This document shows, one piece after another, positions 3,840 through 6,398 of a stretch of 64,000 nucleotides of DNA (position 1 is its first letter; each line of letters opens with the position of its first letter). Origin of the DNA: a virus (taxonomy: Duplodnaviria > Heunggongvirae > Uroviricota > Caudoviricetes); IMG/VR virus record IMGVR_UViG_2713896909_000009, positions 32,001-96,000 of that record. One strand, 5' to 3'. Under the pieces are notes generated by a model. That model was not told where the DNA came from and made no database searches. It was given only the letters and a program-made list of their open reading frames with translations. Made by a program: the position numbers and the translations under genes.

Positions 3840-4541
3840 TTATTCTGATTCTTGCTCAAAAAACGCGCTAATGAGAGGAAGCCAATCCTCTGACACTTCA
3901 CGCGGTCGCGGTTTGCCGTGGAAGAAGATTATTCGGCAGTCTTTTGGTAATGTCCCATTCCCCCTGGAGTAGCGCGCACTTGCATATTTCGAACCAGGTC
4001 CCACAACATCGGCCTTGTAACTTACAAACCATCCCGGATACAGATCCTGAAATGCTGGTGTGTCATCGCCCATAACCTTCCGTAAGAAGCCCTGATCACC
4101 CCAGCACTCAGTAGTGACACAACGAGAAATCCAACCTTCCGGATCTTGCCAGAATGAACTCCAGATATGCGCTTTTACACTATTTGGTATCCACAGTGCA
4201 CCGCTACCACGATATTGTGGATGGAAAAAATCTCTAAGCATGGTGAAGCTGGTCGGTGGATTCTCAAGGATTGGGCGTATATCACCGGCAATAACCGTGT
4301 CCAAATCCAGATAGAACAGATCATCGGTTATATCCGGTCGGAACAACTCGATTTTCGCCCACCAGCCACGGCACTTTTGCCACTGGTTGATCAATGGGAC
4401 AACTTTGACGCCAGGTACATGTAAACGCTTCAGGTCTGTCAGGCAAATAATTTCATAGCCTTTTGGCAGTTGATTAACCAGCCACTGCACATCGGAAGCG
4501 TTATAGTCACCACCAGAGCGAAGAACTAAAGCAATCTTCAT
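3840..4541 (-). CDS. Putative GT-A-type glycosyltransferase-like protein (DxD motif)
   Basis: ORF track 233 aa; YLDLDTV motif typical of nucleotide-sugar transferases. Confidence 0.4.
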
Positions 4542-5230
4542 GCTGCACCATCACCTTTCACTTTCATCAATGTCAGGTTTCCGCAAAATACGGCACCAGT
4601 GTCGATATAATGCTGATTCCAGAATGCCTTCGGGCTTTTCACCGGAGTATGACCAAAGATAAAACGATCTGCGCCCGAAATTTCGCCACCAATATCATCC
4701 ATCGAATCACTGATACGCTCGCGCGCCCAGACAACATTGAAAAGTGGCACCTCCTTACCGAATTGGTATTCATTATCCGGATAGTCGGCATGGGCTATAA
4801 CGATAGTTTCTCGCCCGGTGTTCAACTCAATGATATAGGGTAGACGTCTTACCAACTCCACCAGCGCCCTGGCTAATATTTCCTGATCAGTGTCCAGCAT
4901 GAAGAACCATTGACCGCCATTCATTAGCCAGTTATTCACGTTGCCAGCAGGACTTAACGCATCAAGCATCAACCGCTCATGGTTCCCCATGACTGACCTG
5001 AACCAGGGCATCTGCAATAGTTCCAGACATTCGACATTTTCAGTACCGCGATCGATAAGGTCGCCGACAGATATCAGTAAATCCTGCGCAGGGTCAAAAT
5101 CCACACGATGGAGTTCGGACATCAGTCTGGTGTAGCAACCGTGCAGATCACCAACAACCCAGACATTCCTGTATTTAGTACCGTCGATACGGTGATAAAT
5201 TGTTGGTGCCATCATGTATTCTTCAGCCAT
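4538..5230 (-). CDS. ppp: Ser/Thr protein phosphatase (calcineurin-like metallophosphatase; lambda PPase / P1 ppp-like)
   Basis: ORF track 230 aa; GDLHG, GDLIDRG, GNHE metallophosphatase motifs. Confidence 0.8.
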
Positions 5231-5838
5231 TCTTTAAGAGTCATCTGCGGTATCCCCCCCATTTCCCCGCACGAAACAACGTCAATCTGTTCACGCGCAG
5301 ACTGGAATAACAAAGGCAGGTGACTTAGATTTTTTGGCGTGCCGCCGGAGTGAACGCGCGGTTCTTGCGTAGCGTCAACGCCCACCAGGGCAACATGTTT
5401 GAATCCGATATGGAAAGCTAGGTTCAGAGCGCCGTATGCACTATTGCCGCTGGCAATTTCATTCACATCTTCACAAAGTCCGAAATGTGCGGACCAGCGC
5501 CACGCCCACCACTCGGGAGAGTTCGTATTTTTTGGCTCTGTGCCTCGCTCAGCCACTCGACGGAAGCACAGAACACCGTCTCTGACTTCACGTTCTTTAA
5601 CATCAGGTAGCGCCAGGCAATAACAAACACCGCGGCGACGGCGACCACGACCAACGCGCCGCATATTGTCTGGCGATGGATCAAGGGTGAAAAAATAAGA
5701 AGCGCGGTTAAGCCAGTCGATGGCCCCGTTGACCGCTATAATCGGCACTCCACGCGGCGCAACAAAGTTTGCGGCGCTTGGGCCACTGCCGACGATAATA
5801 ACGCGATCACTGCCTCTAAATTTATTCTTGGGAAACAT
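5212..5838 (-). CDS. Hypothetical protein, paralog of 5736-6398 (GSGPS Rossmann-like motif)
   Basis: ORF track 208 aa; N-terminus [10 protein letters not shown]...IIAVNGA aligns with the neighbouring gene. Confidence 0.55.
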
Positions 5839-6398
5839 TGAATTGCACTGCTCCTACTTGCATTCAAAATATGTAAATCTGCATGTTTTTTGCGGGTATC
5901 CAGGAACTGCTGTTGCCATTTTGAAATAGACACCTGCGTTGGATTCCGTAGTGCTTGAGGGTGCGCACCATGCCAATGGAGGCCGTTTTGCAGAGAACAG
6001 TCATAACCGACTAATACAACTACTTCAGCCCCTGACTCTGCCGCCAGACTGATAGCCTGCGCGCCGCTATTTACCCCTTCAGCTGGTCCACAATATCGCC
6101 TGTACTCCAACGAAAATGATTTCGCCGCCGCCAGGTTGGCTGTCACTTTGCGGAATCTCCCTTCCGGTATGATGGATCCGTATTGCTTCCACCATGACAA
6201 ATCACCTGCGTATAAGGCATAAATGTCATCGAACATCTGCCAGGAATTGTTGACCGCGATGATTGAACAGCCAGTTTTTTCTATAGCAGCACAGTCCTCA
6301 CGAGTGAGTGACGGACCGCTACCGATACAAAAAACCGTCTTAGTCGCCCGGGGCGGTATGTTCATTCTCAGCTGCAAATTCGGCCTCCAGGCGAGCAT
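5736..6398 (-). CDS. Hypothetical protein, paralog of 5212-5838 (GSGPS Rossmann-like motif)
   Basis: ORF track 220 aa; TVFCIGSGPS...IIAVNNS; 3' end overlaps next paralog by about 100 nt in another frame. Confidence 0.55.
   Translation of the reverse strand: MLAWRPNLQLRMNIPPRATKTVFCIGSGPSLTREDCAAIEKTGCSIIAVNNSWQMFDDIYALYAGDLSWWKQYGSIIPEGRFRKVTANLAAAKSFSLEYRRYCGPAEGVNSGAQAISLAAESGAEVVVLVGYDCSLQNGLHWHGAHPQALRNPTQVSISKWQQQFLDTRKKHADLHILNASRSSAIQCFPRINLEAVIALLSSAVAQAPQTLLRRVECRL

Follow-up and report, generated by a model that had tools for sequence, protein, structure and literature searches.

The 64,000-nucleotide stretch of DNA analysed here (the window; positions 32,001 to 96,000 of the IMG/VR virus record IMGVR_UViG_2713896909_000009) belongs, judging by its nucleotide sequence, to a P1-like phage-plasmid, and carries on its minus strand, at 3840-6398, the genes pmgO, pmgP, ppp and pmgQ. 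We propose that pmgO, pmgP and pmgQ may form a late cytoplasmic glycosylation cassette that would build a short glycan, most likely on a virion protein, with ppp standing apart from it; this is a tentative reading, which the evidence below makes possible rather than probable. The block genes have long been known and their families are of known kinds. What is new here is the portable three-gene unit pmgO-pmgP-pmgQ, the fusions between its members, its position in late regions and near capsid genes, and the conserved architecture of the pmgO/pmgP overlap. Among laboratory phages P1 is a classic, and phage-plasmids of its type are common in Escherichia and Salmonella; these four conserved genes are without an assigned function, and a portable late glycosylation cassette would offer a concrete hypothesis of sugar-modified virions.

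In a megablast search of phage records, window positions 1500-7500 matched P1, P7, SJ46, RCS47 and related phages, 99% of the query aligning at ~96% identity. Comparison with the P1 annotation (NC_005856, ~96% nucleotide identity) identified the four minus-strand open reading frames (ORFs), which lie where a preliminary description made from the letters of the window had placed them, as pmgO (5736-6398, 220 amino acids), pmgP (5212-5838, 208), ppp (4538-5230, 230) and pmgQ (3840-4541, 233). Gene content, gene order and a 103-nucleotide overlap between pmgO and pmgP are identical to those of P1 (gp088-gp091), from which the window differs only slightly, for example in the predicted promoter PpmgN described below. 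The names hdmB, hdmC and hdmD of P7 belong to counterparts of this block, and the P1 annotation of the pmg genes goes no further than 'putative morphogenetic function'. The flanking genes are pmgN, pmgM (encoding a VRR-NUC protein), pmgL, pmgR, pmgS and pap. The block is contained in 798 plasmid records of PLSDB, the top matches being Escherichia albertii phage-plasmids (97% identity) in which three of the genes are annotated as 'hypothetical protein' by the Prokaryotic Genome Annotation Pipeline. Deletions and knockdowns by CRISPR interference (CRISPRi) indicate that the pmgO-pmgQ block is dispensable for plaque formation (PMC9024508; PMC10695390). Despite this dispensability in the laboratory, pmgO, pmgP and pmgQ are maintained in P1-like elements: among 140 P1-like loci examined by tblastn, a count that takes in some contigs fetched twice, the ORF is intact in 140 for pmgO, 140 for pmgP, 138 for ppp and 127 for pmgQ. 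Truncated PmgO database clusters had suggested frequent pmgO pseudogenes, an idea that we rejected given the intact ORF in all 140 loci. PADLOC returned no defence-system match among the block proteins, PmgS giving only weak coiled-coil matches to LmuB.

Predicted enzymes of the cassette

Its family profile and structural model identify PmgQ as a GT8-type glycosyltransferase of the GT-A fold, predicted to be of the configuration-retaining kind, in keeping with the GT-A-like protein with a DxD motif named in the preliminary description. A profile built from 66 homologs matched GT8 structures, among them Gat1 (6mw5, E 1.7e-7) and glycogenin (~7e-5), and these alignments span the DxD, GDQG and H-G-x-(K/R)-P motifs of the two enzymes. 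The AlphaFold2 model of PmgQ has a predicted local distance difference test score of 95, and its Foldseek matches are almost all GT8 enzymes (Gat1 6mw5 at 1e-8, glycogenin, LgtC and GlyE), with template modelling scores of ~0.5-0.6. The corresponding motifs in PmgQ are DxD (D79, D81), GDQGF (148-152) and FFHGKPRP (H208); across the 66 homologs D79 and D81 are invariant, and conservation is 90% or higher at G148, D149, Q150, H208, G209, P211 and P213. PmgQ also matched phrog_1962, annotated 'glycosyltransferase', at 2e-126. While PmgQ shares the GT-A fold, DxD, GDQG and His-Gly-x-Lys/Arg-Pro with glycogenin, Gat1, LgtC and GlyE, it is far smaller than these enzymes, has only 11-17% sequence identity to them and matched no Pfam family at E up to 1, Glyco_transf_8 included. 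Escherichia coli K-12 WaaJ, another GT8 member, aligned with the PmgQ family only around the DxD (53% probability). One PmgQ homolog, P0293, occurs in a different cluster (locus L179, metagenome contig SDBV01021716.1, 6534-7706) that encodes a radical-SAM protein and a methyltransferase but neither pmgO nor pmgP, so the GT8-like module appears to serve other cassettes too. At its N-terminus P0293 is extended by ~180 amino acids that have no Pfam match; a ParB-like domain in this extension, which might have hinted at a DNA target, was considered and dropped, given the lack of Pfam support and of pmgO and pmgP at the locus.

PmgO and PmgP are, on profile comparison, distant paralogs. The relation is visible at that level only: BLASTP gave E 0.004 over just 36 amino acids, whereas hhalign of the two families gave 97.8% probability (E 7e-13, 162 columns, 22% identity). 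The preliminary description had named a paralog pair with a GSGPS motif, and both proteins do carry it. The motif order GxGPS, AVN, D, NS(G/A), GxD and a conserved downstream His is common to both families, appearing as GSGPS, AVNN, YAGD, NSG, GYDCS and HWHGxH in PmgO and as GSGPS, AVNG, TLD, GNSA, VGVD and HLP in PmgP, which has an insertion of ~35 amino acids relative to PmgO. The PmgP family comprises 567 clusters at 50% identity, and PmgP matched phrog_2111 at 3e-130. Where an unrelated fold would have counted against the preliminary description, the two proteins turn out to have the Rossmann-like MptE/DUF115 fold of Maf, MptE, Cst and TPK. A structural search placed a Maf glycosyltransferase on top and also matched Cst-I and GT29 sialyltransferases, and a fold search of BFVD returned unnamed viral MptE-like proteins only. 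A precomputed PF01973 match is present on many PmgO and PmgP homologs, and in P0053, an in-frame PmgO-PmgP fusion, the PmgP half scored 44.6 bits, above the PF01973 cut-off of 34.6. Searches of the PDB with either protein, whether by the single sequence or by the family profile, gave chance matches only.

The same fold takes in MptE and TPK, and PmgO and PmgP could be MptE/TPK-like pyrophosphokinases or other nucleotide-dependent enzymes that activate a small molecule, which PmgQ would then glycosylate or which has some other late role. We consider this improbable: a Maf glycosyltransferase is the top structural match, with Cst-I and GT29 sialyltransferases matched as well, the partners of PmgO and PmgP are glycosyltransferases and sugar-type methyltransferases with no pterin, thiamine or nucleotide-metabolism genes alongside, and PmgP occurs in nature directly fused to a GT8 domain. 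We infer instead that PmgO and PmgP are glycosyltransferases, the donor sugars being likewise deduced. Compared with the Maf flagellin glycosyltransferases, which have flanking domains, they are minimal single domains of ~200 amino acids, and P1, in contrast to the Maf and GT42 Cst-I/Cst-II systems, encodes no nonulosonic-acid biosynthesis genes.

A weak similarity links PmgP to WaaZ, a GT73 enzyme that transfers Kdo III (3-deoxy-D-manno-oct-2-ulosonic acid) from cytidine monophosphate (CMP)-Kdo in the lipopolysaccharide (LPS) core of E. coli. In NCBIfam, no family was found for the PmgO members and PmgP members matched WaaZ only weakly; WaaZ is the sole named family to recur for PmgP (5 of 25 members). 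In hhalign the helix-strand-GxD region and the C-terminal strand are in register, but the WaaZ model score of 13.6 bits against a 200-bit cut-off is well short of significance for membership. Filing PmgO and PmgP as WaaZ-like Kdo transferases was rejected, as E. coli K-12 WaaZ aligned with the two families at just 34-40% probability.

The enzymes may thus be pictured as follows. PmgQ would be a metal-dependent retaining hexosyltransferase, with UDP (uridine diphosphate)-glucose or UDP-galactose as the likely donor, and PmgO and PmgP small single-domain enzymes with the fold of the CMP-ulosonic-acid users Maf, Cst and GT29. Since these relatives use CMP-ulosonic acids, CMP-Kdo is the only such donor on offer from E. 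coli K-12, and there is the weak similarity to WaaZ, host CMP-Kdo is a candidate, if speculative, donor for PmgO and PmgP. The three late-expressed cytoplasmic proteins would probably act as a complex.

Gene company, late context and the likely acceptor

To follow the cassette beyond P1, we assembled loci of PmgP relatives from genomes and viral contigs, together with contigs bearing specific homologs. Among the non-P1 loci with adequate flanks, 19 of 21 carry pmgO, pmgP and pmgQ together. Their hosts span Gamma-, Beta- and Alphaproteobacteria and Bacteroidota (for example Citrobacter, Serratia, Pseudescherichia, Zhongshania, Commensalibacter, Brevundimonas and Sinomicrobium, as well as Methylophilaceae) and are all Gram-negative; the cassette may be mobile between phages of such bacteria. 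Besides the PmgO-PmgP fusion P0053, there are PmgP-PmgQ fusions (P0302, P0374) and PmgQ-PmgP fusions (P0391, P0357). Companion genes encode S-adenosylmethionine-dependent (SAM) and FkbM methyltransferases, GT2-like and Nucleotid_trans-like transferases, a cupin and a sulfotransferase-like protein; these variable extra transferases and methyltransferases indicate the assembly of a glycan. Methyltransferases are reportedly also found in the glycosylation clusters of mycobacteriophages Che8 and Rita.

The phosphate-handling and nuclease neighbours keep different company. By its motifs (GDLHGC, GDLIDRG and GNHE in the translation) and matches to Metallophos (58 bits against a cut-off of 21.5; 2e-15) and the NinI-like phosphatase family phrog_246 (3e-112), Ppp is a lambda NinI/PrpA-type Ser/Thr phosphatase of the metallophosphoesterase kind, as the preliminary description had recognised; its match to PRK11439 (1.6e-82) is below the cut-off and it falls short of the PrpA/PrpB equivalog cut-offs (277 against 326 bits). 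The HAD phosphatase and VRR-NUC nuclease mentioned there are also recognisable, Pap being a PNKP-type HAD phosphatase (HAD_PNKP, 8e-12) and PmgM matching VRR-NUC at 21.3 bits, slightly under the cut-off, and, at 5e-27, a PHROG whose annotation is Holliday junction resolvase. That PmgO, PmgP, PmgQ, Ppp, Pap and PmgM all serve one modification pathway would suit their position as neighbours on the same strand in P1 and the tight packing of ppp, which overlaps pmgP by 19 and pmgQ by 4 nucleotides. We nevertheless regard a single pathway as highly improbable. None of ppp, pap and pmgM was found in any non-P1-type locus with O-P-Q (pmgO, pmgP and pmgQ); ppp is confined to P1/P7-type elements, and is missing from a distant P1-like contig of 101 kb (L109) that retains pmgL, pmgM, pmgO, pmgP, pmgQ and pmgS. 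In addition, the terminator after pmgS separates pap, which is further downstream, from the block, and lambda has a homologous phosphatase but is not known to carry any such cassette. Because it is absent from L109 and from the non-P1-type cassettes, ppp is best explained as a lineage-specific insertion between pmgP and pmgQ. The block may therefore combine two unrelated things, an O-P-Q cassette and a lambda-type phosphatase that would have entered it in the P1 lineage. Of the sugar- and phosphate-handling pathway suggested earlier, the part made up of pmgO, pmgP and pmgQ is upheld by their co-occurrence, fusions and companion transferases, while ppp, Pap and the VRR-NUC protein drop out.

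In every neighbourhood checked with Pfam, the cassette lies in the late region, with capsid, portal, terminase or lysis genes nearby, and in three independent lineages it comes right after the major capsid gene or one small ORF later. The order is portal, ClpP, major capsid protein and O-P-Q in locus L108, a Pseudomonas-like prophage; major capsid protein, small ORF, O-P-methyltransferase-Q and gp6 connector in L095; and S78 protease, major capsid protein, P-Q and connector in L097. Other head-gene settings are MuF, O-P-methyltransferase-Q and tail tube protein (L101), and portal, MuF, O-O, cupin, methyltransferase, sulfotransferase-like protein and Q (L107). Terminase genes adjoin the cassette in L096 (large terminase, O-P, Nucleotid_trans-like protein, Q), in L111 and L113 (P2-like large terminase, portal, O-P, Nucleotid_trans-like protein, Q), in L004 (lysis genes, O-P-Q, an ORF without family match, terminase genes) and in L115 (P, methyltransferase, Q, O, an unassigned ORF, putative small terminase, large terminase, putative portal). 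The cassette stands beside lysis genes in L116, L100 and L003; the order in L116 is O-P, GT2-like protein, 191-amino-acid protein, Q, holin and lysozyme, the last two called from reading of the sequence with no family-library check. L003 (Serratia plymuthica chromosome, 4513-17785) is a prophage remnant with pmgQ beside pmgP and two pmgO-like genes 5 and 12 kb off, and the region also holds genes for Big_1-domain proteins, a lipoxygenase and a lipase. A separate observation concerns L107, a prophage in a Sphingomonadaceae metagenome-assembled genome, where the portal protein (4362-6224; Phage_portal_3, 2e-99) has a C-terminal Acb1 domain (6e-42), a phosphodiesterase directed against the cyclic-oligonucleotide-based anti-phage signalling system (CBASS); an anti-defence enzyme appears here to be fused to a virion protein.

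This context points to a late-made product as the acceptor, a virion protein, for instance the capsid, being the most likely. A parallel is known: phage-encoded glycosyltransferases glycosylate capsids in mycobacteriophages Che8 and Rita, according to the work cited in PMC11256854. By that account, the phage glycosyltransferases of Che8 and Rita are linked to capsid-protein glycans as is proposed for O-P-Q, but their hosts are actinobacterial and the glycosylation has been demonstrated experimentally, whereas for O-P-Q it is predicted from gene context.

The sugars might instead be placed on the host envelope, for example on the LPS core, which is the P1 receptor, where an added Kdo and hexose could mask the receptor so as to exclude superinfection or keep progeny off debris. 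GT8 does take in LPS core transferases, LgtC is among the Foldseek matches of PmgQ, the LPS enzyme WaaZ is the one named family to recur for PmgP, and the hosts are Gram-negative throughout. We still find remodelling of the envelope unlikely, because expression is late and lytic-only: the P1 annotation has the genes repressed by C1 in lysogens and transcribed from a late promoter, other phages carry the cassette in late head or lysis operons, and material made minutes before lysis would presumably not replace the existing surface. Moreover, LPS cores diverge greatly between Enterobacterales, Brevundimonas, Methylophilaceae and Sinomicrobium while the enzymes are conserved, and the similarity to WaaZ is well under any threshold.

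Phage DNA is a further candidate acceptor, glycosylated late in a Mom-like anti-restriction role. Glycosyltransferases of DNA-hypermodifying phages are known, including for a Kdo-like sugar acid (bioRxiv 10.1101/2023.12.21.572611); late expression would curb toxicity, and a terminase or portal neighbourhood is compatible with such a role. However, the DNA glycosyltransferases described so far belong to the GT-B or JGT-like GT-A enzymes and go with genes for synthesis of 5-hydroxymethylcytosine or 5-hydroxymethyluracil, and no such precursor genes or hydroxymethyl-base enzymes were found in the annotated P1 region or the Citrobacter rodentium prophage locus, whole genomes not having been screened. 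P1 DNA is also routinely cut with restriction enzymes and sequenced, and antirestriction was unchanged in knockouts (PMC9024508). DNA glycosylation is therefore very improbable in our estimation, and of the two targets named in the preliminary description, virion protein or DNA, the former fits better, because the cassette lies among late genes and, in three lineages, at or near the major capsid gene.

Several points weigh against a virion-directed glycosylation cassette. The window proteins PmgO and PmgP score only 20-23 bits on PF01973 (23.0 and 20.4), below its cut-off, and their link to WaaZ is weak. Unrelated accessory genes are also typically placed among late genes, and capsid proteins vary widely across the cassette-bearing phages, so a shared acceptor is not obvious. 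To our knowledge, glycosylation of the P1 virion has never been reported, and we know of no protein-linked Kdo. The P1 virion proteome paper is silent on glycans, and deletions gave neither a plaque nor an antirestriction phenotype (PMC9024508). In its most specific form, in which P1 and many other Gram-negative phages decorate the capsid or other virion proteins with a short PmgO/P/Q glycan made in the cytoplasm from host CMP-Kdo and a UDP-hexose, we give the proposal only a small chance of being right. If true, it would bring, as far as is known, the first virion glycosylation in Gram-negative phages and the first protein-linked Kdo, both in a much-studied phage; virion glycosylation, documented so far in mycobacteriophages, would extend to Gram-negative phages, with a bearing on antibody recognition, on how stable therapeutic phages are and on delivery vectors based on P1. 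Should it prove false, O-P-Q would still be a widespread gene unit.

The pmgO/pmgP overlap and transcription signals

The out-of-frame overlap of about 100 nucleotides between the paralogs, noticed in the preliminary description, measures 103 nucleotides (5736-5838, minus strand), pmgP being read in frame +2 with respect to pmgO. It is a genuine and ancient overlap, though not otherwise exotic. An overlap of 40-133 nucleotides in the same +2 frame recurs in at least 10 divergent lineages, which include P1-like, Pantoea, Chimaeribacter, C. rodentium lambdoid and P2-like ones. In the window the ATG at 5838 is the sole in-frame pmgP start upstream of GSGPS, and the only usable one, since a TAG closes the frame five codons further upstream. 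A programmed frameshift yielding a PmgO-PmgP fusion in P1 was considered and dropped on the same ground, no canonical slippery heptamer having been seen either. In loci where pmgO precedes pmgP, the pmgP start codon straddles two pmgO codons, taking its first base from the third position of one and its other two bases from the codon that follows, the conserved Cys/Trp codon of a (T/Q/K)-C-F-P motif of PmgO; in the window this is the Cys188 codon of the conserved CFP motif. The GGAG ribosome-binding site of pmgP spans the codon of the invariant Arg182 of PmgO and the codon that follows. The conserved last strand and helix of PmgO lie over the variable first 10 residues of PmgP, whose conserved GSGPS region in turn lies over the C-terminal 24 residues of PmgO, a variable, low-confidence tail; as the conserved part of each protein faces a variable part of the other, the sequence can be shared without conflict. 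With the ribosome-binding site and start of pmgP set within conserved pmgO codons, the expression of the two genes would be tied together, and the overlap plausibly couples the expression of two subunits.

At its other end, pmgO overlaps pmgN by 59 nucleotides (6340-6398) if it begins at the ATG at 6398. A possible alternative start at Met12 (ATG at 6365) would shorten this overlap, and distant PmgO homologs start 1-5 residues ahead of the GSGPS strand. For pmgN itself, CRISPRi and deletion data conflict as to essentiality (PMC10695390).

The term 'late operon' used in the preliminary description is fair, with the qualification that internal C1-controlled promoters are annotated. The late promoter LPpmgL at the head of the pmgL-to-pmgS unit (7477-7495, minus strand) is identical to the NC_005856 feature, and the first strong minus-strand terminator downstream of it is an intrinsic one after pmgS (2228-2256, minus strand; an 11-bp stem and a T run). 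The C1 operator Oppp (Op83; 6539-6555, plus strand), upstream of pmgN and pmgO, has one mismatch relative to the P1 operator. Between pmgQ and pmgR, the C1 operators OpmgRb and OpmgRa with the promoter PpmgR (3773-3838) are identical to P1 and form the downstream border of the block. The predicted sigma-70 promoter PpmgN (6568-6594, minus strand) has three mismatches relative to P1 and does not keep the -10 element, TATGCT having become TCCGCT, so early C1-controlled expression of pmgN-pmgQ may differ in this phage-plasmid.

Other features of the window

Two regions away from the block deserve mention. The tail-fibre genes and lydA are separated by an island of low GC content (~0.35) on the minus strand at 56045-58085, which encodes a GT4 glycosyltransferase (3.5e-37 to Glycos_transf_1, and a further match to 'GT4-conflict'), a hexapeptide acetyltransferase and an ORF of 109 amino acids. 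A search of the phage collection found no match to the island, which is 98-100% identical to P1-like plasmids of E. albertii, Escherichia fergusonii and E. coli; in these the glycosyltransferase carries the annotation LPS N-acetylglucosaminyltransferase. The island may be a lysogenic-conversion module. On the plus strand at 54518-55387, directly after a tail-fibre gene encoding 1172 amino acids, lies a gene for a 289-amino-acid protein with an N-terminal Macro domain (ADP-ribose-binding or hydrolase; 2e-19) and a C-terminus of His-rich GAHSH repeats resembling the end of that tail fibre. It is followed by the gene for a tail-fibre assembly protein at 55406-55990.

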